Shown: positions 2,122-52,660 of the stretch, piece after piece
Layout: each line of letters opens with the position of its first letter
Numbering within the stretch: position 1 is the first letter of the stretch
Translations under genes and position numbers: made by a program
From: an uncultured Gammaproteobacteria bacterium
GTDB lineage: Bacteria > Patescibacteriota > Microgenomatia > Levybacterales > GWA1-39-11
Reading direction: 5' to 3'
DNA: 64,000 nucleotides
Assembly (NCBI GenBank): GCA_964504535.1
Contig: CAZDED010000005.1
Span: forward strand, 9,411 to 73,410
The notes under the pieces: model-generated
The model's database searches: none
What the model was told of the DNA's origin: nothing
Seen by the model: the letters and a program-made list of their open reading frames with translations, nothing else

Positions 2122-2973
2122 ATGAAAAAAGCTGCCCGCAACAAGAAAGAATCCTTTTTTGAAAAACAACAGGAGATAGTGGAAGAAATTGTAATTGAAG
2201 AGAAAAAAATTGCTAAATCGAAAATGAAATTGTTGTCACAAAGAAAATATCAGGTAGGATTATTAGTTTTGATAATTATTGTCGTGGGAGCTTTGGTGGC
2301 AGGGTATGGGTTTACTCAAAAAAATGACTTAGTTGATGGTGGAAAGCTGAGCCCTTCCCAGATATCAGCACTTGTTAATGAAGTGGGGGATAAGATGGTC
2401 ATTCCAAAAGGGGAGACTCCAACTATCGCAACGGTTACTGATATCACAAAACTTGAAGAACAACCGTTCTTTAGGAATGCTCAAAATGGCGATAAAGTCA
2501 TGATATTTGGGAGTACAAACACTGCAATTTTGTACCGTCCATCAATTCACAAAATAGTAACGGTAGCGCCTATTAATGCTCAGAATTCCCCGATAACAAC
2601 TAGCAATACAACCCCAACACCATTGCCATCAGGTGTAACTCCGAGCGTCAGTCCAACTCCCACATCTACACCAACAAAAGTAGCAATTCTTAACGGAACG
2701 AAAGTAGCCGGACTTGCCAAAAAAGCGGAAGATCTTCTAAAAAGCTCAAACATCGAGGTAGTTACTCTTGGGAATTCAGTTGGAGACTATCAAACAAGTT
2801 CAATCTCTAAAGTTGCAAGCTCAACAAAGCTTACAGATAATGACTTACAGTTAATAATTTCACCTACAAAATTAAAGGCTAAAGTAGTTGCTCTTCCTGC
2901 TGATGAAACAGTACCGGGAGGAGTAGAAGTAGTAATTATCCTCGGAAAAGATTTTGCTGACGCTCAACAATAA
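2122..2973 (+). CDS. membrane-anchored LytR_C domain protein (paralog of previous)
   Basis: N-terminal TM helix, Thr/Pro-rich linker, C-terminal VAILNGTKVAGLA...VVIILGKDF matching LytR_C. Confidence 0.55.
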   Translation: MKKAARNKKESFFEKQQEIVEEIVIEEKKIAKSKMKLLSQRKYQVGLLVLIIIVVGALVAGYGFTQKNDLVDGGKLSPSQISALVNEVGDKMVIPKGETPTIATVTDITKLEEQPFFRNAQNGDKVMIFGSTNTAILYRPSIHKIVTVAPINAQNSPITTSNTTPTPLPSGVTPSVSPTPTSTPTKVAILNGTKVAGLAKKAEDLLKSSNIEVVTLGNSVGDYQTSSISKVASSTKLTDNDLQLIISPTKLKAKVVALPADETVPGGVEVVIILGKDFADAQQ

Positions 2974-2975
2974 TA

Positions 2976-5720
2976 TTATCTTCTCGCCGCCCGCATATTG
3001 GAGGCCCACAAGAGAATGTCTGCGATTGACACTATTATAAATGGAAGTACTTTAAACACCCCGAATTGACCTATAAATACGATTTCTATAGCCAGAACAA
3101 GAATTAAAATAGCCTCAAATAGAGTAGATAAAAGATATTCCGTATACCACTTAACATTATTAAGACTCATACGAGGAGGCTTGCCTGTTTGTTCTATTAG
3201 TAAAACAATCCTGTCATTAAGATCATTCTTTTTGACCTTGATTGATGTACCAGAAAACCCTTTTTTATTAGTAGTTATTCTGATATCAACAGCCTCATGA
3301 ATCTTTACTAAAAACTCACCATGCTCATTGCTTTTTGTATGACCCAGAACTTTTCCTGAGTTTGAAAGGAAATAGAGTAGGACTCCTGCTACCGGCTCAT
3401 CTGAACCTGAAGTTGAGATGTTCCCATGAACAAGAAATGTGTGTACATCCTTTCTAAAAGGAAGAAATATGTGATACAAGAGAAACGTGGGAAATAAAAT
3501 GACTGGCACCGACATCCTTTTTGAGAGAGAGATGGTAAGAAGAAAAGCAAGAAACGATAGTAATAAAAAGGCAACAAGCTCAAAAAATCGATAAGACGAG
3601 CGAAGAGTTTGTATTGCTTGCTCAGAAGACTGGAAAAAATCAAGTGCAGTTGATAGGTAATATTGGCCAAGTGTCAGGATGTTAAATGGCAGGGGGGTAA
3701 GTTCGACGGTGGGGTAGGAAGATGACATATCAGGGTCAAGAGTGAACTCGAGTGATTGTTCTTTGTATCCAAGAATTTGAATAACAGCTTTGTATTTCCC
3801 AGGAGGAAGAACTGTCAAAACCTTCCCATCAGGCTCAGAATACGCAGGATTTTTTATAGGTGTTACGGAAGATGATAATAATTCATAAATCTTGAGACGT
3901 TGATTGTAGAAGTAGAACGTAATTTTTGCGTGCTCGATAGCAGCTTTTGTTGCACTATTTATGACTCGTAAAGGTTGGGAGACTGTAACATCTGAAATTT
4001 TTTGTTCTGAGATGTTGCCATTGTAATCCTGGACTTGCAATATGAGCTCATATTCTCCAGGCCGTACTCCGGCATTTAGTCTTCCCACAAAATGTCCCGG
4101 ACTTATTTCAGATACTGTTACGGAGTCCGAACTCGTGGTTTCAGGTTCAAAACTATTTATTCCAAGTACATTCTTACTTCTGAGAATTGCTTTTACTGCC
4201 TTTACATTAGAAGGATCTTTTATCATTACCTTAAAGGAGTAATTGGAAGTGTTGGGAATGATAAAGATACCTATTGGACTTTGGAGACGCGAACCGTCGA
4301 CTAGCAATACATCTTGGCTTGTTACAATCAATGAATTTATGTCTACTTGGGGTGGGTTTGAGGTTTGAGCTGTATCTAACAGATAAAGATCTGAGGTGGC
4401 AGATATCCCATTTTGTGTGGTTGCCAAGACTTTGAAATAGTATCTTGTGCGAGGTTTGAGGTTGGTAAGAGTTACTAAATGATCTTTCCTAAAGTCGTTG
4501 ACAACCTGAGATTCATTTAAATTACTTATAGACGTACCGTATGAAATGTTAATTTTTGAAGCCAGACTGGTTGATATATAAATTGAAGCCTGATCTTGGC
4601 TAATTGTTCTGATATCAATTACATTTATCCGTAATGATGAGCTAGTGTTTGGTTTTGGTCCCAGTCCATCAGATTTTCCATCAGTTCTACCATCAGTTCT
4701 GCCATCCCCTCCAGAACTGCCACCATAGGAAATCGCAGATGTCGGGGCATTTGGATTTTGAAAAGTAGACGTTATTGTTGAATCTGCGGTTTGGGTTACT
4801 GGGCCTAAAACTCTCCCATTGACCGTAAAAGTCACTGGTAATGAGCCGGTGTAGGATGAGCTTGTTTTGAGTTTGAAAGTCACAGTTTGGTCAGTAGTAT
4901 TGCCCGGTATAGTAGTTATAGTCCAATCTATTTTTCTGTTAACCGTGTCAACCACTGCTGGAGTGTTGTTGTAAGCATTTGAACTACTACCTATTACATA
5001 ATCGAGAATTTCCTCAGTTGGCGTTCCATTCCCTTCAACGGTTCCCAAATCCCAGCTAGCCTCAACAGTAATTGCAGCTGGATAACTGAGCAAGTTTGCG
5101 TAAGTCAGAGTATATGTTAGAGTCGTTTCTGGGGCAAAAGTACCGTTTGCAGGGTCTGTGATGGTAAGATCAGCACTAAAATCCGTGGGATTTGCAGCGA
5201 CAGTTGCTGTGACGGATATGCTTTCACTGGTGACTATTGAAACCGCATAGGCATGATAATCAACGACCTGGCTCGAGTTATTCATGGTTCTAAGAACCCC
5301 TACATAGGTTCCAGTTGATGCTGGAGTAGTCAGAGTATTTGAAGAAGCGAAGTTAAAGCAATACTGCGTGCCTGTTGACAGGTCGTTTGAGGGAAAAGTG
5401 ACTGTTTGGCCTGAGACTGCTGTTGCTGTGCCTATTCCAGGCAATGGAGTAGCACCTGAGGGTAGATTTGTCGTTGCGATAGTCCAATTTGAAGCCGTAG
5501 AATTTACACTAAACCCAGTCGGAAATATAACTTGAATCGAATTTTCTACGCCATTTGTTGAAGGTGTAGCACAAATAAGACCTCCAGTCACTTTTGAGAT
5601 CGCCAATCTGTCTAGACGCACTAAGGTTTCCAAATCTCCAGCATAGGCTAGATGAGGCAGGAGAGGGGTAAGAATGGGTATAAGTACTACCACAAAAAGG
5701 ATACGGGCAATAATACGCAT
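2976..5720 (-). CDS. large (914 aa) cell-surface protein: signal peptide, Thr/Ser-rich Ig/FN3-like beta repeats, GDGRTDGRTDGKSDG low-complexity stretch, C-terminal multi-TM region
   Basis: N-terminal MRIIARILFVVVLIPILTPLLPHLAYA signal. Long T/S/N-rich repetitive beta-strand sequence. Several hydrophobic helices near the C-terminus. Confidence 0.6.
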   Translation of the reverse strand: MRIIARILFVVVLIPILTPLLPHLAYAGDLETLVRLDRLAISKVTGGLICATPSTNGVENSIQVIFPTGFSVNSTASNWTIATTNLPSGATPLPGIGTATAVSGQTVTFPSNDLSTGTQYCFNFASSNTLTTPASTGTYVGVLRTMNNSSQVVDYHAYAVSIVTSESISVTATVAANPTDFSADLTITDPANGTFAPETTLTYTLTYANLLSYPAAITVEASWDLGTVEGNGTPTEEILDYVIGSSSNAYNNTPAVVDTVNRKIDWTITTIPGNTTDQTVTFKLKTSSSYTGSLPVTFTVNGRVLGPVTQTADSTITSTFQNPNAPTSAISYGGSSGGDGRTDGRTDGKSDGLGPKPNTSSSLRINVIDIRTISQDQASIYISTSLASKINISYGTSISNLNESQVVNDFRKDHLVTLTNLKPRTRYYFKVLATTQNGISATSDLYLLDTAQTSNPPQVDINSLIVTSQDVLLVDGSRLQSPIGIFIIPNTSNYSFKVMIKDPSNVKAVKAILRSKNVLGINSFEPETTSSDSVTVSEISPGHFVGRLNAGVRPGEYELILQVQDYNGNISEQKISDVTVSQPLRVINSATKAAIEHAKITFYFYNQRLKIYELLSSSVTPIKNPAYSEPDGKVLTVLPPGKYKAVIQILGYKEQSLEFTLDPDMSSSYPTVELTPLPFNILTLGQYYLSTALDFFQSSEQAIQTLRSSYRFFELVAFLLLSFLAFLLTISLSKRMSVPVILFPTFLLYHIFLPFRKDVHTFLVHGNISTSGSDEPVAGVLLYFLSNSGKVLGHTKSNEHGEFLVKIHEAVDIRITTNKKGFSGTSIKVKKNDLNDRIVLLIEQTGKPPRMSLNNVKWYTEYLLSTLFEAILILVLAIEIVFIGQFGVFKVLPFIIVSIADILLWASNMRAARR

Positions 5721-5794
5721 ATATTAAGTATCACGCATTACAAAGAGCGTATCAAGTATTTGATTCTCAAACAGATATTCCTCATAATTGTTAT

Positions 5795-6481
5795 ATGACA
5801 TACAAGACAAAAGAGAAGTCTTTTTTCGAAAAAACAATTGAAGAGGAGATAGTAAAGCCGGTTCAGGAAACAAAGGAGGATCTTCAGGAATTGGAGAAAA
5901 AAGGTGCTAAAAAAGTCCTGAAATGGTACGATTTCGGAGCCTCTTCTCTTCGTGATGAGATCAAAAGACGTCCTGCGCAATATTTTTTCTTATTCATAAC
6001 ATCCTTTATAGGGTCTGCATTGACTACTGGTGCTGCTTTAATAATTTTTTCAGGCAATCTTATCGCTCAGTTCGTCCCAAAACCGGTCCAAAAAGTGGAA
6101 AGTTCTCAGACTGTCAAAGTTCCTGTAGCTGCCACTAAATATGACCCATTACTTCTTGCTTCAAAATTGCGCAAAAATGAGACAGACTTCGAGCTCGTGG
6201 ATGTACGAAGTTCAGAGGAATTCAACCGAGGCCATATCATGGGTGCTGTGAGCCTTCCTGTTTATTCGACAGAAATGGTTGGCAAAAGTGGTGATGTCGA
6301 TGTGGCAAGCATAAAGGAGGCATTCAAGAAATATACTACAACTGACAAATTCCTTATCATTTACGCTCAAAATGCTTATGCAACTATCCCTTCAGATATA
6401 GCAGCCATCCTCTCAACTGGCAAAAAGGAAGTAAAAGCCCTTGCAGTTGGGTGGGAAGAGTGGCAACATCTCAATCAGTAA
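5795..6481 (+). CDS. membrane-anchored rhodanese-homology domain protein (catalytic Cys replaced; probably inactive)
   Basis: FELVDVRSSEEFNRGHIMGAVSLP matches rhodanese. The active-site loop reads YAQNAYA with no Cys. Confidence 0.6.
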   Translation: MTYKTKEKSFFEKTIEEEIVKPVQETKEDLQELEKKGAKKVLKWYDFGASSLRDEIKRRPAQYFFLFITSFIGSALTTGAALIIFSGNLIAQFVPKPVQKVESSQTVKVPVAATKYDPLLLASKLRKNETDFELVDVRSSEEFNRGHIMGAVSLPVYSTEMVGKSGDVDVASIKEAFKKYTTTDKFLIIYAQNAYATIPSDIAAILSTGKKEVKALAVGWEEWQHLNQ

Positions 6482-6731
6482 TTAGTAAATAGTAATTAGG
6501 AATTTCCAACAAATTGAAGCTATTAGTCCTATATTAAAAAAATATCCCTATAGTACGAAGCATGACAAGTCACATATAGGCCTAGAATATGAATCGTTAT
6601 TATCTCAGTTTGAGCCTAAAAATTATTACGGGATAATTTATTCTTAGAGCATTTGTTTCCTTTCTATTTGAGCTGATATTTAGTAAAATATACTTCGTGC
6701 CGAAGATGAAAATTTTCGGTGCAAAGAAAGC

Positions 6732-6820
6732 GTGCCGAGATGACGGAGCGGTCAATCGTAACAGACTGTAAATCTGTCGCCCGTTTGGGCTACATAGGTT
6801 CGAATCCTATTCTCGGCACA
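6732..6820 (+). tRNA. tRNA-Tyr (anticodon GTA), type II with long variable arm
   Basis: 7-bp acceptor GTGCCGA/TCGGCAC. Anticodon loop CTGTAAA. Variable hairpin GCCC-GTTT-GGGC. T arm ATAGG-TTCGAAT-CCTAT. Discriminator A, CCA not encoded. Confidence 0.8.
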
Positions 6821-6886
6821 AAAATAGATAAGAAGTTTTTTTGTGAAGAGAAAGGAGTCGACTGATAGATTTCAGTCCCCTTCGGG

Positions 6887-6972
6887 AACAGACTGTAAGC
6901 AAGCTTGAGACCGTTGGTCTTAAATCTGTCGCCCGTTTGGGCTACATAGGTTCGAATCCTATTCTCGGCACA
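6887..6972 (+). pseudogene. tRNA-Tyr 3' partial duplicate (anticodon loop to 3' end) interrupted by a 22-nt mini-hairpin insertion right after the anticodon
   Basis: acagactgtaa + gcaagcttgagaccgttggtct + taaatctgtcgcccgtttgggctacataggttcgaatcctattctcggcaca. The upstream sequence does not form a 5' acceptor or D arm. Confidence 0.5.
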
Positions 6973-7037
6973 CGAAATTTTTTTGAGTGTGACGAGAACA
7001 AACTTGCTTTATTCTCGGCACAAAATCCGCTAAATTT

Positions 7038-7100
7038 GCCCTGATGGCTCAGTGATCGCTCAATTTGCTTTGCAAATTGTAGAGCGCGTTCTTGAGACGG
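7038..7100 (+). repeat. tRNA-Thr-like 5' fragment carrying a 25-nt hairpin (caatttgc-ttt-gcaaattg) inserted in the D loop
   Basis: gccctgatggctcagtg | atcgctcaatttgctttgcaaattg | tagagcgcgttcttg. This parallels the genuine tRNA-Thr 5' half 14 nt downstream. Confidence 0.5.
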
Positions 7101-7113
7101 AAAAACTTTTTAT

Positions 7114-7185
7114 GCCCGAGTGGCTCAGTGGTAGAGCGCATTCTTGGTAAGAATGAGGTCCCGGGTCCGATTCCCGGCTTGGGCT
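7114..7185 (+). tRNA. tRNA-Thr (anticodon GGT)
   Basis: Acceptor GCCCGAG/CTTGGGC (one G-U pair). D arm GCTC-AGTGGTA-GAGC. Anticodon stem CATTC/GAATG with loop TTGGTAA. T arm CCGGG-TCCGATT-CCCGG. Confidence 0.8.
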
Positions 7186-7261
7186 CAAAAGTTTTTCCTC
7201 GCAATTTGGCGAAGCCAAATCGAAAGAACAGAGTGGTGACGACCATGCGAAGTATGGCCAA

Positions 7262-7437
7262 GCTTGAAAGGCTTATTCCCGCTCGGGGCTCAGTGATCGC
7301 TCAATTTGCATTGCAAATCGTAGAGCATTCTTGGTAAGTAGTCATGGGGACGACCCTGCATAGCAGGGCAAGGTTCTGAACTTATTCAGGTTCTTAGCAG
7401 AGCCAAGCCTGAAAGGCTTATTCCCGGCCGAGGCTCA
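7262..7437 (+). repeat. degenerate tRNA-Thr-derived copy with the same 25-nt D-loop hairpin insertion plus an ~85-nt insertion after the anticodon loop; probably non-functional
   Basis: gctcggggctcagtg | atcgctcaatttgcattgcaaatcg | tagagcattcttggtaag ... ttcccggccgaggctca. Flanking sequence gccaagc(t/c)tgaaaggcttattcccg is duplicated at 7256 and 7403. Confidence 0.45.
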
Positions 7438-7503
7438 AATATTTCCTCGCAGGTTTTCGTTTCTTTTTTGCAATAGCTTGCCTATCAGGAGTATAATATA
7501 GAG

Positions 7504-7809
7504 ATGTCAGAATTTATATCGGATGCTATTATTATGTTTCCTGACCGGAATTTGAGAGGTGGTCTTACTTTACATAGTGAACATGAGGATGGAAGACTAA
7601 TGAAAATGGAAGTCGATGAAAGTGTCGTTAATCGGCTTAAAAAGTTTGGATATAGTCAGGAAGCTGAAATTATGGATGTTTTGGTACCAATTAGCAATGT
7701 AGACGGAGAGGATATTATGCAAATGGATTCACCTGTATATCAGTGGGGGATGGAGATAGGGCAATTTATAGTAGCAAATGAGCCAAAAAATAAAATAAAT
7801 CTCTCCTAA
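7504..7809 (+). CDS. hypothetical protein (101 aa)
   Basis: ORF only; no recognisable motif. Confidence 0.35.
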   Translation: MSEFISDAIIMFPDRNLRGGLTLHSEHEDGRLMKMEVDESVVNRLKKFGYSQEAEIMDVLVPISNVDGEDIMQMDSPVYQWGMEIGQFIVANEPKNKINLS

Positions 7810-7882
7810 TACACCTTATTTACTTGCAATTCTAGGTAATAGCTAATATAATTTGTACTTACGTTAAAAACTTTCACATATT

Positions 7883-8062
7883 ATGGCAAAAAAATCTAAA
7901 GGAACACGTCTACAATTCGGTCTTCAATGCACCGTTTGTAAGAACGTTAACTACATAACACAACGCAACAAGCTCAATACGCCAGAAAAATTGGTGTTAA
8001 AGAAATTCTGCAATTTTTGTAAGAAAATTCAACCTCACAAGGAACGGGAAAAGTTGAAGTAG
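7883..8062 (+). CDS. rpmG: 50S ribosomal protein L33
   Basis: MAKKSKGTRLQFGLQCTVCKNVNYITQRNKLNTPEKLVLKKFCNFCKKIQPHKE carries the L33 CxxC...CxxC zinc ribbon. It is 59 aa, below the ORF-track cutoff. Confidence 0.85.
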   Translation: MAKKSKGTRLQFGLQCTVCKNVNYITQRNKLNTPEKLVLKKFCNFCKKIQPHKEREKLK

Positions 8063-8128
8063 TCTTCATTTTCTTTGTTTCACTAAAAAGATCCAACCCC
8101 ACAAAAAAAGAGAAAAACTCAAATAGCT

Positions 8129-8827
8129 TTACAGTAGTAGAAGAGAGAAGAGTCCGAAAGCTGCTCCAAGTAGTGCTCCACCAATGACGTCAGTTGTCCA
8201 ATGTTCTCCTAGACTGATCCGGGATACTAGCATCAGAATCGCATACAAAGAGACGACTCCAATGACAGGGAATCGTAAATATGTAGATATTTTTTTGCCC
8301 TTAATTAGAAGCATAATTATAATTATGAACAAGAAAATTACACGTAAAGAATGACCCGAAGGGTACGATGCATCAGTATGTACATAAAGCCCTGGGAATT
8401 GCATTGATAGATCAGTCGTACGAAGGAACATATGAGGTGGACCAGGCTGGGATAGGATGCCTTTTCCGATGATCTCAATGATATGTGCAGCTCCAAAAAA
8501 ACCAATAGTCAGAATTCCTATGATTTTATGTCTGAAAATTAATATCAAGATAAGAACAACTAAAGAAAATTCAAATCTTCCTGCTACGCTCAAAAAGGAG
8601 AAAAATTCATCAAATCTTAGAGGAATATCATCCTGAAGTCTTACAGTGGTGTTGAAGTCGAATTGCCTTAAAATATCACTTCTGACAATAAATGTGAATG
8701 CAGTGAACATTCCAAAGAAAATGACACCCAGAATAGTAAATGCCTTTTTATAATGTGGTGGAAATGAGGACATGAGCTCTTTTTTTATATGTTTGACTAC
8801 TTTTTGCATCGATATATATGGTAGCAA
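8129..8827 (-). CDS. PAP2-family (type 2 phosphatidic acid phosphatase) membrane phosphatase
   Basis: PAP2 motifs PSGHS and SRxxxxxHxxxD (SRISLGEHWTTDVIGG) with multiple TM helices. Confidence 0.75.
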   Translation of the reverse strand: MLPYISMQKVVKHIKKELMSSFPPHYKKAFTILGVIFFGMFTAFTFIVRSDILRQFDFNTTVRLQDDIPLRFDEFFSFLSVAGRFEFSLVVLILILIFRHKIIGILTIGFFGAAHIIEIIGKGILSQPGPPHMFLRTTDLSMQFPGLYVHTDASYPSGHSLRVIFLFIIIIMLLIKGKKISTYLRFPVIGVVSLYAILMLVSRISLGEHWTTDVIGGALLGAAFGLFSLLLL

Positions 8828-8860
8828 AAAACAGGTTTTAAATGCAAAAAAAAGACTGTA

Positions 8861-9079
8861 TTAAGTATTATTGCGAAGGGTTTCGTTCTGTGTCAGATCA
8901 AAAGAGGAGACGATGGGAGCTTCCTCAAGGAGAGTGTCAATTTCTCCAAGGAAGTGGCTTTGATCTTGCGAGAGTCCGGTAATATTCTGGCCATCTGTGA
9001 TTGCCTTTCTTTTAAGTTCAATAAGTTCAGGATCTTGGTAGTCCAAGTTCCTCAATGCTGCAGCAAGTTTCTCGTTCAT
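8861..9079 (-). CDS. hypothetical protein (72 aa)
   Basis: ORF only. Confidence 0.3.
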   Translation of the reverse strand: MNEKLAAALRNLDYQDPELIELKRKAITDGQNITGLSQDQSHFLGEIDTLLEEAPIVSSFDLTQNETLRNNT

Positions 9080-9251
9080 GTGTATATTTTATACCTCAAA
9101 ATTCTATATGCAAGCATTAGAAAATATTAGTTAGGGATCATTTTTTAGATGATGAATAATTTTTTATGGGGTATTTATCCTAGCAAACATATGTTTGAAT
9201 GGTAAATAGCCTACAATTGCTCATAGAATCTCAACCTTATACAATTTATAA

Positions 9252-9971
9252 ATGACAGAAGAAATCTCAGTTGATGAGCCTCCTCTTGTAAATCGAGATG
9301 CCTTACCTGATCCAGATCAGCAATGGGGAGACGTAAATTATATTCCCGATTTGCGACCATCGCTTCTTTATCTGCCTCCTGATATGGGTACATGGTCAGA
9401 TAAGTGGGGATTTACGGCGTTTGGGAGAACACCCTTTGAGGTATACATACAAGCTCGTGGAAGAATGACCAGAGAAGTATGTCAGGATGAAGTAAACAAA
9501 CTTAGCTCTCAAGAACTTGAAGCAGAACCTTTTCAATTTTTTTACCGTCACGCCGACATGATCTCAAGATTTGGAGTCCCAGATAGCGCAAGTAAATTCT
9601 TGCCTACGGTATGGAAAAGAGTAATAGATGAAGCCGAAGGTTTTGTGGAAACTGTTTATCCTGAGAACCCAAACTTCCAGGAGACTGTGAGAGCTGATAC
9701 ATTCAATTATTTATTTTGTATTCTTGAGCTCTATGGACAAGAAAGTTCCAATAATTTGAGTCCTGACAAAGTTGAAGAATTATATAATATGGGAATGGAT
9801 AAATACCCGAAATTTGTGCGCAGTGCGCTGCGTTTTGATAACAGAAATAAGATATTAGGAAAATCAATTGGCCTTTCAAGCAGGGTTAAGGCTTCATTGG
9901 AGTCGCTGTTATTAGATGAAAGTAGTGCGGGGAGCAATCAACTAAATGTATTAATTGCTTATATTAGCTAA
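9252..9971 (+). CDS. hypothetical protein (239 aa)
   Basis: ORF only; acidic N-terminus. Confidence 0.45.
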   Translation: MTEEISVDEPPLVNRDALPDPDQQWGDVNYIPDLRPSLLYLPPDMGTWSDKWGFTAFGRTPFEVYIQARGRMTREVCQDEVNKLSSQELEAEPFQFFYRHADMISRFGVPDSASKFLPTVWKRVIDEAEGFVETVYPENPNFQETVRADTFNYLFCILELYGQESSNNLSPDKVEELYNMGMDKYPKFVRSALRFDNRNKILGKSIGLSSRVKASLESLLLDESSAGSNQLNVLIAYIS

Positions 9972-10010
9972 ATTGATAGCTCAATATTACCTCAAGCCCT
10001 TGTATCTTCA

Positions 10011-10967
10011 TTGGCGCATTCAGACTCATCTCAGCAAGTTAGTAAAGTAATTGATGATATAGCTCCTAGACTAGGTATTGAACAAATACGAAAAACCCTT
10101 AGAGAATATGCGGAATCGAATGAGAGTTTTTTGCCAAAACTTAAGCAAACCTATGCATATGTGGGAATTGACAGTGCAAATGACATTGCTTTAAGCCTAA
10201 AAAATGATGTTTATAACAAGCTCGATTTTTCACTATATAACCCAAATGAAAAGCTGCAAAAGTTTGAAGAGCAGCTGCTTGAGGATGAATTCAAGGATAA
10301 GAAAGTTTTAGATGTAGCTTGTGGGACTGGTAGGCATGTGCTTGCAAATAGTAGTGCTGGTGTGAGTGTATCAGGTATAGATATAGTCCCAAAGCATGTC
10401 GAATACATAAAAAATAAAAACCCCGATACAGACGTGCAAATTGCTAGTTGGTTTGATATGCCATTTCCAGACAATAGTTATGAAGGCATATATTGTCTTG
10501 GTAGGTCATTTACCCACAATACAACAATTCCAGATGCCGTCGCTTGTCTGCGAGAAATGAGAAGAGTGTTGAACGATGATGGAATAGTTATTCTTGATCT
10601 TCCAGATCCTGCAAAAGGGGAATATAAAGATCTCATAGACCAAGTGTCTAGAGTACGAATATCCAAAGGATTGAAAGTGCTAAAAGGAATTATTAATGAT
10701 AGTCCGGATCAAGAGCATTATTTCGATAGATTTGTGCCCGATGACAAGCAATTTATTTTAATTGCAGAGCTTGCTGGATTTAAAGCCGAAAAGTTTGCAG
10801 AAAAACCGTATAAAGGAGTATCGGAGAGAGAAAACGTCAATACATATTGGAAATTAACCAAACAACATGAATTGACGACAAAAGTACAGTTGGACTGGAG
10901 AATGTCGACAATGAGAAATAGAGATCAGGCAATTGGTTCTCTTAGTTATGTTTCTTATCGACCGTGA
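10011..10967 (+). CDS. SAM-dependent methyltransferase (class I)
   Basis: Motif I VLDVACGTGRH with an acidic-loop context. The start codon appears to be TTG. Confidence 0.65.
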   Translation: MAHSDSSQQVSKVIDDIAPRLGIEQIRKTLREYAESNESFLPKLKQTYAYVGIDSANDIALSLKNDVYNKLDFSLYNPNEKLQKFEEQLLEDEFKDKKVLDVACGTGRHVLANSSAGVSVSGIDIVPKHVEYIKNKNPDTDVQIASWFDMPFPDNSYEGIYCLGRSFTHNTTIPDAVACLREMRRVLNDDGIVILDLPDPAKGEYKDLIDQVSRVRISKGLKVLKGIINDSPDQEHYFDRFVPDDKQFILIAELAGFKAEKFAEKPYKGVSERENVNTYWKLTKQHELTTKVQLDWRMSTMRNRDQAIGSLSYVSYRP

Positions 10968-11719
10968 ATAGTATTTCTCCACGCAAGGTCGAACCAAGCC
11001 TTCATAGACATCGCAACTGAGGGGTGGTGGATGACAATTCCGACAAGTCCTTCGTCTTTTTTGTAATGAATGATGGCAACTTTATCTCCATATATATCTA
11101 TTTCATGCTGAAAAGGAAAGAGTTTCGAGTCGACCATTCGGGTAGTTCTAAATTCTTCAGTATTTTTACTGGTATATGCTTTACTTTCACGACTGGAAGC
11201 AACGATAGCTTTGACATGAACTTTTTCTCTCACTCTTTTTCTCACAAATTTTGTCCTAAGCCAAGCATATAGTTCTGGCTCTACATCTGCAGCTTGGAGT
11301 AGAGCATAGATAGTTTTTTTTTCCACCAAGATATCCTCATAAATATCCTTCAATCCTTCAACTCCTTCATAAATTCTCACAATAGGGCGTTCTGTAGACA
11401 GGGTATAGCTCATAGCAAGTGCCGGGAGTAAGGCGTCAAAATCTTTTTTTGCCTGCTGGACTTTTTCTAGCTCTTCTTGTGCAAGAAGTGCAAGTTTTGT
11501 TGGGGATTCAGGACGTACATGGATGATTTTTTTGTAGTCTCTTTTTAGAATAAAGCCTTTTTTCTCTAATATTGCGAGCGCTTTGTAGACGGTAGGGCGC
11601 TTAAGGCCACACTTTTGGATAAGTGTGCCGACGGGAACTTCTCCACATTTGACCAAAACTTCATAGATTTTTGCCTCATTTTCAGAAAGACCGACGTTTT
11701 GTAAAGCTTGTAGTGACAT
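10955..11719 (-). CDS. TrmB-family transcriptional regulator
   Basis: N-terminal winged helix LSENEAKIYEVLVKCGEVPVGTLIQKCGLKRPTVYKALAILEKKGFI. A C-terminal TrmB-like domain follows. Confidence 0.7.
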   Translation of the reverse strand: MSLQALQNVGLSENEAKIYEVLVKCGEVPVGTLIQKCGLKRPTVYKALAILEKKGFILKRDYKKIIHVRPESPTKLALLAQEELEKVQQAKKDFDALLPALAMSYTLSTERPIVRIYEGVEGLKDIYEDILVEKKTIYALLQAADVEPELYAWLRTKFVRKRVREKVHVKAIVASSRESKAYTSKNTEEFRTTRMVDSKLFPFQHEIDIYGDKVAIIHYKKDEGLVGIVIHHPSVAMSMKAWFDLAWRNTIHGR

Positions 11720-12052
11720 ATTTGAGTATATTTATACCATCATAAGGTTGATTTGTCAATATATTATGCCACCATATAGTGTCAAAATATGGAAATAAAG
11801 CTGATATAAGGCTGTTTTTGTACAGGGATAGAAGATTTGAAAATATATATTATTGTCAAGAGTGTTGAACATTATATAACTATAAGATAAAATGTACCAC
11901 TGTTTTAAAGCAGTCAAGCAATAGCTGTTTGATGACCCTTGAAGCAGCGTACATTAACAATCTGCTGAAAAATACTCCTTTCGGAGACTTTTCCCATCAC
12001 AAATATGGTGGGCGAAATCTCCGACAAGGAGAATACAATGAGGAGGGGCGTT

Positions 12053-12820
12053 ATGTCCCAGGCATTTCCTATCCCTGCATCCATCCTTCAGCCCATTCCT
12101 GATCCCGTCCCGGAAGGCTACTTCCAGCGGTGGCAGGTCTACGTCGATGGGCAAGAGGCAACGCCTCAGCACATCACGATGGTGAATGTGGGGCAAGGAC
12201 TCCAGCTCGACTGGGGCTCTCACCCCGATGGCAAATGGTCGCAGTTCTGTTACCGCGAGAACCATGGAGGTGGCGTTGTCATCATTCCGCATGCAGTCAT
12301 GCCCGACGGGCGTGTCTACATCGGCGTCATCGACGCCAGGCGCCCTTTCCGCGATCCGCGGCCAGGGGCTGTCTTCATGGAGTTGCCGCGCGGTATGCGT
12401 GACAAGCTGGAATCGGCCACACAGGCCGCTCAGCGCGAAACGGAAGAAGAGACCGGCCATTCGGTTTCCGAAGGGTCGTATGTCGTGCTCGATGGTGATG
12501 GGGCCAACCCCAATTCCACCTTCTGGCTCACGTATGATCACAAGAACGAGACGCCGGATGGCGTCAGGTTCGTGACCGTCGAAGTCCCGGCCTCATCGCT
12601 CGTTCCCTCAAGGGACGGCGAAATGGTTTTGGACACCGCCGGACCCGTGGATTCCTTTGAAGGAATCGAGAAGTGTAGGTTCGTGCCCCTTACTATCCGT
12701 GAAACCGCGGGTGAAGGGGACATGTTCCTGCTCAGTGGAGCTTTCAAGCTCCAAGCGTACCTCATCGGACACTACGCCAACGTTTCCTTTCGGGATGGCG
12801 TGATGGTCGTGTCCAACTAG
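12053..12820 (+). CDS. Nudix hydrolase (ADP-ribose pyrophosphatase-like), encoded in GC-rich island A
   Basis: Nudix box GMRDKLESATQAAQRETEEETGH. High GC3 codon usage. AGGAGG sits 6 nt before the ATG at 12053; the ORF is open from 12005. Confidence 0.7.
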   Translation: MSQAFPIPASILQPIPDPVPEGYFQRWQVYVDGQEATPQHITMVNVGQGLQLDWGSHPDGKWSQFCYRENHGGGVVIIPHAVMPDGRVYIGVIDARRPFRDPRPGAVFMELPRGMRDKLESATQAAQRETEEETGHSVSEGSYVVLDGDGANPNSTFWLTYDHKNETPDGVRFVTVEVPASSLVPSRDGEMVLDTAGPVDSFEGIEKCRFVPLTIRETAGEGDMFLLSGAFKLQAYLIGHYANVSFRDGVMVVSN

Positions 12821-12838
12821 TCATTCAGCAGATCTCAG

Positions 12839-12860
12839 CCGGGTACCTCACGGTACCCGG
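12839..12860 (+). terminator. GC-rich hairpin ccgggtacc-tcac-ggtacccgg 18 nt after the island A stop codon (weak U-tract)
   Basis: Perfect 9-bp inverted repeat. Confidence 0.4.
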
Positions 12861-13106
12861 CACCATTTAAAACCTAATCAGCAGGGTTGGTAAATATTGG
12901 TACTACATCAATTCCAAGGATACAAGAAAGAGTTTGCCAGTTCCCATTCAAATATGTCTTATATATCGATATATCATGCAATAGTGGCTTATGTTTTTGA
13001 GTTAGTTGAAGCTTGCCGTGGACTAGTTGAAGGGTTAAAATAAGGAGTCTTAGGGTAGTAGCTTAGTGCGAATGAAATGAGCACCAAACTTACTTTTTGA
13101 CAATAT

Positions 13107-13180
13107 AGGGTCGTAGTTTACCGGTAGAATAGGGGTCTCCAAAACCCTTGAAGATGGTTCGATTCCATCCGGCCCTGCCA
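13107..13180 (+). tRNA. tRNA-Trp (anticodon CCA), CCA encoded
   Basis: Acceptor AGGGTCG/CGGCCCT. Anticodon stem GGGGT/ACCCT with loop CTCCAAA. T arm GATGG-TTCGATT-CCATC. D stem carries two G-U pairs. Confidence 0.7.
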
Positions 13181-13286
13181 GGCACCATTCGGAGCCTGGC
13201 TTCGCAAGGAGCCAGCGTAGATGGTGACGCAGTCAGGTATCGTATGGTACCTGACAACCTTAGTATCCTCCATGTAAACTTAACAA

Positions 13287-13547
13287 GTGAAATTATTTTA
13301 CGTCTATATTCTTCGCAATAGAGATAAATATTTTACCTACATCGGTTATTCTGAAGACTTAAAATTCCGTTTGAAAACTCACAATTCTGGACAAGTTATT
13401 TCAACTAAGCATTACGTTCCACTTGAACTAATCCATTACGAAGCATATAAAAATATGAAGGATGCAAAGAGAAGAGAGCAATATCTTAAATCCAATAAAG
13501 GCAAAACTACCTTAATAACAATGCTTAAAGAATACTTTTCAGAATAA
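13287..13547 (+). CDS. GIY-YIG nuclease family protein (UPF0213/YhbQ-like)
   Basis: FYVYILRN...YIGYSEDLKFRLKTHN matches the GIY-YIG core. Confidence 0.75.
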   Translation: MKLFYVYILRNRDKYFTYIGYSEDLKFRLKTHNSGQVISTKHYVPLELIHYEAYKNMKDAKRREQYLKSNKGKTTLITMLKEYFSE

Positions 13548-13584
13548 TAGCCCCAGAACTTTTACAACCCTCGAGCACAATTCT

Positions 13585-13992
13585 ATGCTCGACTTCGCGA
13601 AGCAATTCGAACTTCTTTGTTATAATATTTTAATGGAACAACTTGAAAATTGGCTCGAATTACTAAAGACCGCATGGGAGAAAAAGAATCCTGATCTAGC
13701 AATAGAGCTGTGTGCCGAAAAGTTTATTTGGTATGAAGCTCCTTTTCAGAATCCAATCACAACTAGGCAAGGTCTATTAGATGAATGGGAAAGTGTGCAA
13801 AATCATAAAGATATATCAATGAAGTACGAAATATTAAGCTTAACAGGTAATGTTGGCATCGCAAAATGGTCAGCAGTTTTTAAAAGACTATCTGAAGAAA
13901 CAAGCACAGAATTAGAAGGAATTTATTTAGTAAAACTAGATTCTCAAGGAAAATGCACAGAATTTCACCAGTGGTATAACTCTAAATATTGA
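13585..13992 (+). CDS. hypothetical protein, possibly SnoaL/NTF2-like fold
   Basis: 135 aa; only a weak resemblance. Confidence 0.35.
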   Translation: MLDFAKQFELLCYNILMEQLENWLELLKTAWEKKNPDLAIELCAEKFIWYEAPFQNPITTRQGLLDEWESVQNHKDISMKYEILSLTGNVGIAKWSAVFKRLSEETSTELEGIYLVKLDSQGKCTEFHQWYNSKY

Positions 13993-50469: not shown

Positions 50470-50888
50470 AGAACTATCAATTAGCATTTCTCATAATTAT
50501 TCTTTGTAGTGTTGCTCTAATGCTTGAAACAACCGTTATAAATTTCCCTGCGGTTTTTTTGATCGGTTCAGTTTTGGCTATTTTAGTAAAACGTACACCA
50601 ATGCTTATTGGAGTCTTTATTCTCAGTTTTATTATAGATGCACTGCGAGTATCGAATTTTGGGATTACAGCACTTTTTATACTGGGCACGCTTTCAATAG
50701 TCTTGCTTTATGAGAAATATTCTGGCTCAGATGACTTACTGGTAGCGTCTTTTGTCATTGCAGTTATGTTATTTTTGTATGCTCATTTTCTACTATACTC
50801 AACAACATTGATTGTTATATTTTTTGGGCTTTCATTTTTAACTCTATATATCGTTAGCATTTTAAAAAAGAAAGGAAAATTATTATGA
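50466..50888 (+). CDS. mreD: rod shape-determining protein MreD-like membrane protein
   Basis: 140 aa with 4-5 TM helices, overlapping mreC by 4 nt and preceding PBP2. Confidence 0.5.
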   Translation: MKNYQLAFLIIILCSVALMLETTVINFPAVFLIGSVLAILVKRTPMLIGVFILSFIIDALRVSNFGITALFILGTLSIVLLYEKYSGSDDLLVASFVIAVMLFLYAHFLLYSTTLIVIFFGLSFLTLYIVSILKKKGKLL

Positions 50889-52660
50889 AGAGAAGACACA
50901 GACCTATAGGCCATGCATTTTCAGATCATGTGTTTGAAGAACATTTGAAAAGAAAACGTGGATTTTCAGGTTCAAGACTTGAAGGGTTTGGTAGATTTAT
51001 TCCTCTTCTTATTCTTTCTCTTGTTTTTGCACTGCTTGCAATGCGTCTTTTTACATTACAGGTAGTGCGAGCTTCATATTACTCAAGATTATCTGATGCA
51101 AATAGAATACGTACGGAGTTAATAACGGCACCCCGTGGCATAATTTTTGACAGGAATGGGGAGGCATTGGTGCGCAACATTCCAGCATTTGGGACTATAA
51201 AAAATAATAAAGTAGAGTGGTTGGATAGGGACGTTGCTTTGAAGATGGCATCCAATGGAACAAGCGTTCTTGCAATTGTAAAAAGAGATTATTTATATAA
51301 AGACATTTTCTCACACGTCATAGGATATGTAGGACAAGTTAATAGTGATGAATTATTACTTCCTGATTTTAGTGATTATGGAATATCAGATTTTACGGGG
51401 AGGATGGGTCTTGAGGAACAGTATGAAAAATTTCTTCATGGGCAAAATGGAAAACAATTATATGAAGTGAATGCAAAAGGTGAGCGTATACGGCTTTTGG
51501 GTGAAGAGGAGGCAAGACAAGGAGCGGTTCTCAAAACCACTCTTGATGTCGGTCTTCAGAAGGCTGCAGCAAAAGCGATGGAAAAGATAGATAAGGGCGC
51601 TGTTGTAGTTACCGACCCGCGAGATGGATCTGTGATGGCTCTTTATTCAAAACCATCTTTTGATCCTAATTTATTTACAAGAGAACCATCATACAAACCT
51701 GAAGGAGCATATCAGAAGAAAGAAGATATTTTGCTTGATGATGAAAAATTTCCTCTTCTTGACCGAGTTATTGCGGGAGTATATCCACCCGGTTCCACTT
51801 TCAAAATTGTTACTTCCCTTGCTGCACTTTCATCAAATGCCATAAAGCCGGAGACAGAATTTGAAGACACCGGAATACTATCTATTGGAGGAAGTAATTT
51901 CGGTACGTGGAATTACTTGGAAACAGGAAGAAAAGAAGGATTTATGAATGTTGAGCGTGCGCTTGTCCGATCAAATGACATCTTCTTTTACGATGCAGCC
52001 ATGAAAACGGGGATTGATACATTGTCATCATGGTCAAAAAAATTAGGTCTTGGGGAAAAAACAGGTATTGATATACCGGGAGAAGTAAAAGGCACGGTTC
52101 CAAATCCTGCTTGGAAAAAAGAAGAGATTGGGGAGCAGTGGTATCTTGGTGACACAATCAACATGAGTATCGGACAAGGCTTTTTGGAAACGACACCAAT
52201 GCAGGTTAACCTATACACACAATTGGTTGCTAATGGAGGTGAGTTGATAAAACCACACTTGTTGTTTGGGGATGTAAGAATTATTAAAAAAGATTTTATA
52301 GCGAAAGAAAATATTGATGTTGTAAAAAATGGCATGAGGGGTGCTTGTGAGCCAGGTGGTACAGGATACCCACTATTTGGATTTAAAGTAAAAAATGAGC
52401 GATTGAAAATTGATGACCTTGATTATGTAAGAGATGCATCAGCAGGAGCTAATTTTGTACATGTCACAATGGGTTGTAAGACCGGAACTTCTGAGGCACA
52501 TGGAGACAATGCGAAGTCTCATGCATGGTTTACCGTATTTGCTCCTTTCTATAATCCGGAAATTGCAATAACGGTTCTTGCAGAAAATGCAGGACAGGGT
52601 AGTGATATTGCAGCCCCCGTTGCTCGCGATATCTTAAAGGAATATTTTGAGAAAAAATAG
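50885..52660 (+). CDS. mrdA: penicillin-binding protein 2 (class B transpeptidase)
   Basis: STFK, SxN (SNDIFF) and KTGT boxes. Confidence 0.85.
   Translation: MKRRHRPIGHAFSDHVFEEHLKRKRGFSGSRLEGFGRFIPLLILSLVFALLAMRLFTLQVVRASYYSRLSDANRIRTELITAPRGIIFDRNGEALVRNIPAFGTIKNNKVEWLDRDVALKMASNGTSVLAIVKRDYLYKDIFSHVIGYVGQVNSDELLLPDFSDYGISDFTGRMGLEEQYEKFLHGQNGKQLYEVNAKGERIRLLGEEEARQGAVLKTTLDVGLQKAAAKAMEKIDKGAVVVTDPRDGSVMALYSKPSFDPNLFTREPSYKPEGAYQKKEDILLDDEKFPLLDRVIAGVYPPGSTFKIVTSLAALSSNAIKPETEFEDTGILSIGGSNFGTWNYLETGRKEGFMNVERALVRSNDIFFYDAAMKTGIDTLSSWSKKLGLGEKTGIDIPGEVKGTVPNPAWKKEEIGEQWYLGDTINMSIGQGFLETTPMQVNLYTQLVANGGELIKPHLLFGDVRIIKKDFIAKENIDVVKNGMRGACEPGGTGYPLFGFKVKNERLKIDDLDYVRDASAGANFVHVTMGCKTGTSEAHGDNAKSHAWFTVFAPFYNPEIAITVLAENAGQGSDIAAPVARDILKEYFEKK

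Follow-up and report, generated by a model that had tools for sequence, protein, structure and literature searches.

Why would a bacterium of the candidate phyla radiation (CPR), a group with tiny genomes and single-copy tRNA genes, keep dense tRNA debris around two of its essential tRNA genes? This question is raised by a 64,000-nt stretch of contig CAZDED010000005.1 (assembly GCA_964504535.1, positions 9,411 to 73,410 of the forward strand), hereafter the window, which comes from an uncultured Levyibacteriota (CPR/Patescibacteria) bacterium. The patch at 6694-7451 holds two functional genes, tRNA-Tyr and tRNA-Thr; the remainder of the patch is tRNA-derived debris. A first-pass annotation, made from the sequence alone, had attributed the debris to repeated site-specific integration and excision or to a family of tRNA-derived mobile mini-elements, with intron-containing tRNA genes as the alternative. 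We find that the locus is not a set of extra tRNAs. At about even confidence, we read the patch as a graveyard of earlier tRNA-Tyr and tRNA-Thr versions, left at a long-lived recombination hot spot that is shared across the family.

Results

Two working tRNA genes nested in the remains of others

ARAGORN (default and with introns allowed, -i) and Rfam RF00005 placed tRNAs in the patch at 6734-6818 and 7114-7185 only. When introns were allowed at 70-80% thresholds, ARAGORN returned extra calls that were mutually inconsistent (Asn, Pro, Leu, and others). Since no copy was folded into a valid tRNA with introns allowed, we reject the alternative of functional intron-containing tRNAs. The five repeat features of the first-pass annotation were all found on re-inspection, at or near where it had placed them. 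The locus is not an assembly artifact, because five independent contigs show the same arrangement: two ENA assemblies (99.5% identity) and three Logan contigs (100%). The longest exact repeat, of 52 nt, is far beyond chance expectation; isolated matches of 10-12 nt are individually not significant. The coordinates of the features are collected in Table 1.

Table 1. Working tRNA genes and tRNA-derived pieces in the patch, in window coordinates
Feature	Coordinates	Strand	Evidence or content
tRNA-Tyr 5' half-copy remnant, in leader	6694-6733	+	CGTGCCGA at 6696-6703 repeats 6731-6738
Functional tRNA-Tyr(GTA), type II, long variable arm, no encoded CCA	6734-6818	+	ARAGORN; RF00005, 59.7 bits
T2, full-length degenerate tRNA-Tyr copy	6838-6972	+	Repeat search; fold z -3.2; orthologues in L011, L031, L033
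T2 anticodon-loop insert, 22 nt, GCAAGCTTGAGACCGTTGGTCT	6899-6923	+	GCAAGCTTG, hairpin AGACC-GTT-GGTCT, TAA duplication
M module, acceptor-only mini-helix	6987-7025	+	5' arm GTGTGACGAGAA, filler CAAACTTGCTTTA, 3' arm TTCTCGGCACA
Copy A, tRNA-Thr 5' half-copy	7038-7098	+	Acceptor GCCCTGA; hairpin block 7055-7078 after GGCTCAGTG
Functional tRNA-Thr(GGT), 7114-7185, with enclosing repeat	7099-7198	+	ARAGORN; Rfam, 64.5 bits
Trailer hairpin and X1, old tRNA-Thr 3' half	7202-7292	+	Hairpin 7204-7220, ATTTGGC-GAA-GCCAAAT; X1 7222-7292
Copy B, second broken tRNA-Thr	7287-7451	+	Joined to the X1 end at GGCTCA

The tRNA-Tyr gene, whose sequence is identical in 10 of 16 related loci, has pieces on both sides. 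Upstream, the second copy of CGTGCCGA sits in a small imperfect hairpin, as had been claimed. The leader remnant around it is an internally deleted orthologue of a longer 5' pseudo-half: at the equivalent position, L020, L021, L022, L030, and L033 carry tRNA positions 1-12, an insert, positions 14-26, and then CGAAGRCAAAACAA (L numbers denote individual related loci). Downstream lies T2, which had been described as a copy of the 3' two-thirds with a 22-nt insert; the insert is there, but the copy is full-length, with a degenerate 5' third (6838-6886). The T2 core (6887-6972) is 100% identical to tRNA-Tyr positions 27-86, in one block of 12 nt (6887-6898 = 6760-6771) and one of 52 nt (6921-6972 = 6769-6820). 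In the degenerate third, the first stretch (6838-6852) repeats the 3' end and trailer of the working gene (6810-6824) in inverted orientation, and two small hairpins come after it. In relatives, the stem of the T2 insert is kept and its loop varies (GTT, TGC, TGA, AGC). The further copy of the tRNA-Tyr 3' end, TATTCTCGGCACAAAA at 7010-7025, was recovered at 16 nt (= 6808-6823) and falls in the 3' arm of the M module.

On the tRNA-Thr side, the pieces are nested around the working gene, in the order old 5' half, working gene, old 3' half. The gene itself is bounded by a perfect 12-nt inverted repeat (leader 7099-7110, GGAAAAACTTTT; trailer 7187-7198, AAAAGTTTTTCC), and the unit is predicted to fold as a cloverleaf on a 12-bp stem (z -4.0). 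Copy A, which has an orthologue upstream of the working tRNA-Thr in L017, retains an anticodon arm without its anticodon (CGTTC-TTG-AGACG). X1 is made of the 3' strand of the anticodon stem, a hairpin insert that replaces the 5' side of the T-arm, and then ATTCCCGCTCGGGGCTCA. The acceptor strand GCCCTGA of copy A pairs with TCGGGGC of X1, and therefore both look like halves of one older gene; the working tRNA-Thr appears to be seated in the anticodon loop of that older gene, between G34 and G35. Within X1, we also observed that four of the six differences among 99.5%-identical strains (6600-7500; L002, L003) cluster in 30 nt (7253-7281). At 7253, one of these strain differences (T to C) replaces G-U by G-C in the X1 hairpin.

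Two tRNA-Thr-like copies had been said to share an identical hairpin insertion in the D-loop. The shared block is real (GGCTCAGTG, hairpin, and TAGAGC; 7046-7085 against 7287-7326), but it is 95% identical (38/40). The second of these copies, given as a single one at 7262-7437, is tRNA-Thr-derived but composite: the 3' end of X1 (to 7292) is fused at GGCTCA to copy B (7287-7437). The 5' portion of copy B contains a D-arm with the same hairpin block (7296-7320) and TAGAGC-ATTCTTGGTAAG (7321-7338), and its 3' portion runs from a structured insert of 81 nt (7339-7419) through the 3' end, ATTCCCGGCCGAGGCTCA (7420-7437), into the original 3' flank (7438-7451). The reported duplication of the tRNA-Thr 3' flank held up, with 7420-7444 matching 7170-7194 at 80% and 7437-7451 matching 7189-7203 at 87%.

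Fragments across the family and alleles from other lineages

Using the rhodanese protein encoded next to the patch, we found related loci in metagenome-assembled genomes, including Candidatus Levyibacteriota. We compared 16 loci, with rhodanese identities of 56-91% to the window and 48-100% among loci. A scan of metagenomes gave only three further loci. BLAST with a panel of all tRNA alleles identified tRNA fragments in 14 of the 16. L035 had none, and L024 has only degenerate traces upstream of tRNA-Thr, which the panel BLAST missed. The classes are patchy: L017 and L028 lack Tyr pieces, and L011 lacks Thr pieces. The classes that recur are 5' halves, with a conserved promoter (TAAAAT) on one side and the working tRNA on the other; downstream 3' parts; the M helix; T2 with the same insert; and a structured insert within the T-loop of the Thr 3' half. 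Degenerate copies were found in L018, L026, L027, L029, and L031, and together with the cluster of strain differences in X1 they make the decay of the relics visible.

The general order in relatives is tRNA-Tyr, Tyr 3' pieces, variable DNA, Thr 5' pieces, and tRNA-Thr, with changes in both orientation and spacing. The tRNA-Tyr gene is inverted in seven loci (L006, L017, L018, L021, L023, L026, and L029), tRNA-Thr lies on the other strand in L023, L033, and L035, and the distance between the two ranges from 35 nt (L022) to 2.2 kb (L018). L021 and L022 encode identical rhodanese proteins and are 98.6% identical upstream, and their identity falls to ~87% downstream; the Tyr unit is inverted between them, and a 1.4-kb segment is present in one and absent from the other. 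This jump in divergence means that segments of different histories meet at this locus, and what the L021/L022 pair displays is a recombination junction where genome segments of distinct ancestry are joined.

The Thr pieces of the window are not copies of its resident tRNA-Thr. Positions 1-17 of copy A match at 100% Thr6, the working allele (acceptor GCCCTGA) of L023, L024, and L035, while positions 18-33 match Thr5 at 100%. The 3' end of X1 (positions 57-73) is 94% identical to Thr5/6, of the L021-L024 type. The 3' end of copy B is 100% identical to the working allele of L017, the window's closest relative (91% rhodanese identity), and its flank matches the L017 tRNA-Thr flank. On the Tyr side, the working gene of L033 carries the GCTGCGA acceptor, an allele common to L035, and differs by four base pairs from the 5' pseudo-half and T2 that flank it, both of which are 100% the common allele. 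The alleles of both tRNAs are also incongruent with the rhodanese tree. The foreign alleles, the L033 case, and this incongruence are consistent with other alleles having replaced the working gene and fragments of the older gene having stayed behind.

No integrase and doubtful att-site scars

The first-pass annotation's preferred explanation was that elements whose attachment site (attP) copies the 3' part of a tRNA integrated repeatedly and were later deleted, leaving duplicates that resemble attL and attR. Direct 3' repeats do lie downstream of both intact tRNAs (Tyr, 6887-6972 and 7010-7025; Thr, 7222-7292 and 7420-7437). The T2 identity block spans from the 5' strand of the anticodon stem to the 3' end, with short 3'-end copies farther downstream, and both the start of the block and the 3'-end copies reportedly match typical att sublocations in tRNA genes. 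The variable inter-tRNA DNA of relatives, with its GC-rich, foreign-looking stretches, would also suit such elements. However, 5' halves lie upstream of both tRNAs, which att sites overlapping the 3' end do not yield, and the supposed elements between duplicates measure just 30-70 nt. Repeats of one tRNA do not flank the variable DNA on both sides, and this DNA holds genes conserved in the family, encoding small membrane proteins and a PaaX/Cas2-like protein; these genes of the relatives' Tyr-Thr interval are absent from the window.

A Pfam scan of the 10 neighboring open reading frames (ORFs; 2122-13992) found no integrase or recombinase within ~6 kb. Among the relatives that have a Tyr-Thr interval, no integrase was found in that interval (ORFs and Pfam) or in gene tables. 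We also considered a phage attP, and no IMG/VR viral contig carries the Tyr 3' part. What survives of the earlier proposal is repeated recombination, with its debris around two intact tRNAs; att-site scars as such are in our view rather improbable.

Several further observations were made in the Tyr-Thr interval of relatives. GC-rich stretches in L006 (1687-2250), L018 (~6950-7570), and L021 (6164-7300) have overlapping ORFs on both strands and look foreign or non-coding; they contrast with an interval otherwise at 39% GC, and L021 also contains a run of N. A conserved, co-varying stem, such as AATCTGCCGTTC...GGAATGGCGGATT, with a change from TGCC/GGCA to TTCC/GGAA, lies in L011 at ~5290-5350. 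Stems of this type also occur in L006, L024, L025, L027, L029, L030, and L035 and not in the window; they follow a TATAAT promoter, in the 5' untranslated region of small membrane-protein genes between tRNA-Tyr and tRNA-Thr, and had no Rfam match at the gathering score. A homing endonuclease beside the L011 tRNA-Thr (a 199-aa ORF with an apparent LAGLIDADG motif, judged by eye) was unsupported by Pfam, NCBIfam, and PDB searches.

Breakpoints and hairpins at tRNA loops

Nearly all fragment ends fall in or at the edge of the D-, anticodon-, and T-loops. The Thr breakpoints are at positions 17/18, 20/21, 33/34, 34-36, 38, and 53-57, and the Tyr breakpoints at 12/13, 26/27, 36-38, 43/44, and 63-68; only the 3'-end mini-copy departs from this, starting at position 75. 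What fills a junction is either a short hairpin or a fold-back (inverted) copy of the adjoining tRNA sequence. When a Thr 5' half stops at position 20, an inverted but imperfect copy of that half comes next, and this copy tracks the local allele; shuffled sequences scored as well in 6 of 2000 trials for L006 and 7 of 2000 for L030. The motif TAAGCAA(A)GCTTG recurs at junctions of both Tyr and Thr copies and is absent elsewhere in the 64 kb. One hairpin block sits in different loops in the window (D-loop, 7055-7078) and in L020 (anticodon loop).

Such a pattern could also arise if the hairpin blocks were decayed introns or small mobile inserts and had entered the loops of tRNA copies. The loop-centered breakpoints, the hairpin block found in two different loops, the motif shared by Tyr and Thr junctions, and the TAA duplication at the T2 insert would all agree with this. 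Among Patescibacteria, introns have been described in the same two tRNAs, at 36/37 in tRNA-Thr(GGU) (divergent group I) and at 35/36 in tRNA-Tyr(GUA) (group I) (PMC13011429). Reported group I tRNA introns measure 184-894 nt, and the inserts here, at 22-85 nt, are far shorter (PMC13011429). None of the inserts matched RF00028 (E up to 10), and no possible boundary of the T2 insert ends in G, although its 5' side can end in U, as expected of a group I 5' exon. Divergent Thr(GGU) introns escape RF00028 (PMC13011429), and the inserts may be remnants of these. By inspection, the T2 junction cannot form a 4-bp helix flanked by 3-nt bulges, and no bulge-helix-bulge motif was seen. Nor do the pieces qualify as split or permuted tRNAs: copies lack the acceptor 5' strand or the T-arm.

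For mobile elements, the difficulty is that the 64 kb contain the hairpin motifs at this locus only, which argues against the mini-element family of the first-pass annotation. The TAA duplication, present at a single insert, could be a target duplication of a miniature inverted-repeat transposable element. The hexamer GGCTCA is found twice in tRNA-Thr, once in the D-arm and once in the 3' end, and the "D-loop insertion" of copies A and B aligns to the normal trailer hairpin found after GGCTCA; it can therefore be a fusion of a 3' end to a D-arm through GGCTCA and not an insertion at all. We consider mobile inserts or decayed introns very unlikely. Small dispersed repeats of the cyanobacterial kind were also considered and rejected, given that there are no HIP1 sites and that the organism belongs to Levyibacteriota.

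Co-varying hairpins and a possible RNA function

Some of the hairpins co-vary. In the M helix, 84% of positions are paired across eight relatives and four pairs have changed on both sides, including CTGGAA/TTCCAG (L026) and GATGAGAA/TTCTCATC (L029). The inverted repeat around tRNA-Thr co-varies in L017 and L020, as does the hairpin of the copy B insert among the compared loci. The predicted fold of 7030-7445 as a whole (z -3.8) closes the old anticodon stem around the working tRNA-Thr.

One explanation is selection on the half-tRNAs and hairpins, either as parts of the tRNA precursors or as tRNA-like RNAs in their own right. They might form an outer tRNA-like clamp, made of the old 5' half and the old 3' half, that presents the inner tRNA to RNase P and RNase Z; other options are regulatory hairpins of the leader and trailer, or decoys for tRNA-binding proteins. 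The perfect leader/trailer stem around tRNA-Thr, the fold of the whole Thr region, and the restoration of perfect pairing in the L029 M helix, where GG has become AT, would follow from such a role. Yet the pieces are patchy across relatives, from loci missing one class to L024 with traces and L035 with none; many copies are visibly decaying, and arms required for a tRNA fold are missing. Template switching at the DNA level can, moreover, keep arms complementary without selection. No Rfam family besides tRNA was matched in the window region (E up to 10) or in 14 relatives (gathering score). We regard an RNA function as unlikely, and keep it under consideration because T2 is conserved in three lineages, co-variation includes G-U pairs, and the 5' halves lie in a probable transcript.

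Surroundings of the patch

The window has a GC content of ~39%. The patch is flanked by the rhodanese-domain gene (5795-6481) on one side and by a 101-aa ORF followed by rpmG on the other. The window's tRNA-Trp (13107) and tRNA-Arg (44244) have no tRNA fragments nearby. The tRNA-Trp gene (13107-13180) encodes its CCA end, unlike tRNA-Tyr and tRNA-Thr. Directly 3' of it is a GC-rich, hairpin-rich stretch (13181-13290), and a small ORF with a GIY-YIG nuclease domain lies directly downstream (13287-13547; Pfam E 1.6e-14). Small GIY-YIG genes are common in CPR bacteria and were also seen in L025 (4404-4640, just upstream of tRNA-Tyr) and L031 (8084-8347, after tRNA-Trp). These genes beside tRNAs are real, but we found no link to the fragments. 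A 93-nt tRNA-Phe(gaa) called by ARAGORN at 50899-50991 is unrelated to the Tyr/Thr locus; it lies inside an ORF (50885-52660), fails Rfam-type criteria, and looks like a false positive.

Discussion

The reading that we favor is a recombination hot spot in which new or duplicated copies of tRNA-Tyr and tRNA-Thr would repeatedly have been put into or beside the resident gene, some of the incoming copies being alleles of other lineages. One copy of each tRNA would stay intact; of the displaced copies, the leader would retain 5' halves and the trailer 3' parts, some copies being fused through microhomology such as GGCTCA. As the likely route, incoming or sister DNA would recombine, homologously or illegitimately, with conserved tRNA segments as anchors, and template switching would occur where tRNA DNA is prone to form hairpins. 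Such switching would account for the loop-centered breakpoints, the fold-back copies, the inversions, and arms that remain complementary without selection. In support of this, only two valid tRNAs exist at the locus, 14 of 16 related loci carry fragments, and the pieces match alleles of other lineages. The replacement seen in L033, the disagreement of alleles with the rhodanese tree, the junction between L021 and L022, the variable orientation and spacing, the decaying relics, the fold-back copies after Thr 5' halves, and the clean surroundings of the tRNA-Trp and tRNA-Arg genes in the window all point in the same direction. We infer that the pieces are non-functional relics.

Several observations weigh against this reading, and some of them speak for an RNA function. 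In eight sequences, every pair of the 6-bp Thr-insert hairpin is intact (100%), with four two-sided pair changes, a result that 0 of 500 shuffles reached, and the co-variation includes G-U pairs on the sense strand. The T2 core is identical to the common allele at 64 of 64 positions in both the window and L033, where the working allele differs, and the L011 core is likewise 64/64 identical to its resident allele, including a lineage-specific acceptor change; the flanks, meanwhile, diverge. Judging from their place between a conserved promoter and the working tRNA, the 5' half-copies are probably transcribed. A recombination hot spot also gives no reason for just tRNA-Tyr and tRNA-Thr being affected. 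Finally, we identified no recombination intermediate, donor element, or enzyme, and the route is one that we only infer.

A different synthesis is that an active insertion process in Levyibacteriota, aimed at loops, produced the nested tRNA gene and the recurring hairpins, with the hairpins under constraint as RNA. This process could take the form of a self-propagating tRNA-gene cassette, of small hairpin elements entering tRNA loops, or of both. We think it distinctly unlikely; if true, it would be a bacterial counterpart of the archaeal tRNA genes in pieces. More generally, if the co-varying hairpins or half-tRNAs proved functional or mobile, they would represent a new kind of bacterial tRNA-associated RNA or element.

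With the hot-spot reading, tRNA genes here would be swapped between lineages, serve as recombination anchors, and leave nested relics. For the tiny genomes of CPR bacteria, one would not expect debris to persist throughout a family around two essential tRNAs. In practical terms, loci of this kind can mislead tRNA-based completeness checks and intron-aware tRNA finders. Variable loci with partial tRNA duplicates are already known; what sets this one apart is the nesting of a gene within a gene, inserts at all three loops, alleles of other lineages, and persistence across a CPR family.

Among known systems, the intron-containing tRNA genes of Patescibacteria are similar in phylum, in the same two tRNA identities, and in having anticodon-loop inserts at or near the same positions. 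The locus differs from them in also having D- and T-loop inserts, in lacking a group I signature and several arms, and in retaining an intron-less working gene. Archaeal tRNA genes in pieces reportedly include genes with multiple small introns as well as split and permuted genes. They resemble this locus in their short hairpin inserts at several loops, with similar inserts at different positions, and one copy here shares with them the fusion of a 3' end to a 5' part. The present locus, in contrast, belongs to a bacterium, and type II tRNA-Tyr is a bacterial feature; no bulge-helix-bulge was seen, the pieces do not sum to complete tRNAs, and intact ordinary genes are present. The attL/attR remnants of integrative elements in bacteria and archaea also leave 3' direct repeats downstream of an intact tRNA at a variable locus. 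At this locus, however, no integrase or element was found, and it has upstream 5' halves, loop hairpins, unbracketed variable DNA, and alleles of other lineages. In plastid genomes, tRNA pseudogenes are found at rearrangement endpoints. As at this locus, fragments there accompany inversions and other rearrangements, with tRNA genes as the recombination substrates; here, by comparison, the fragments are nested around a working gene, kept across a bacterial family, and joined by co-varying hairpins.

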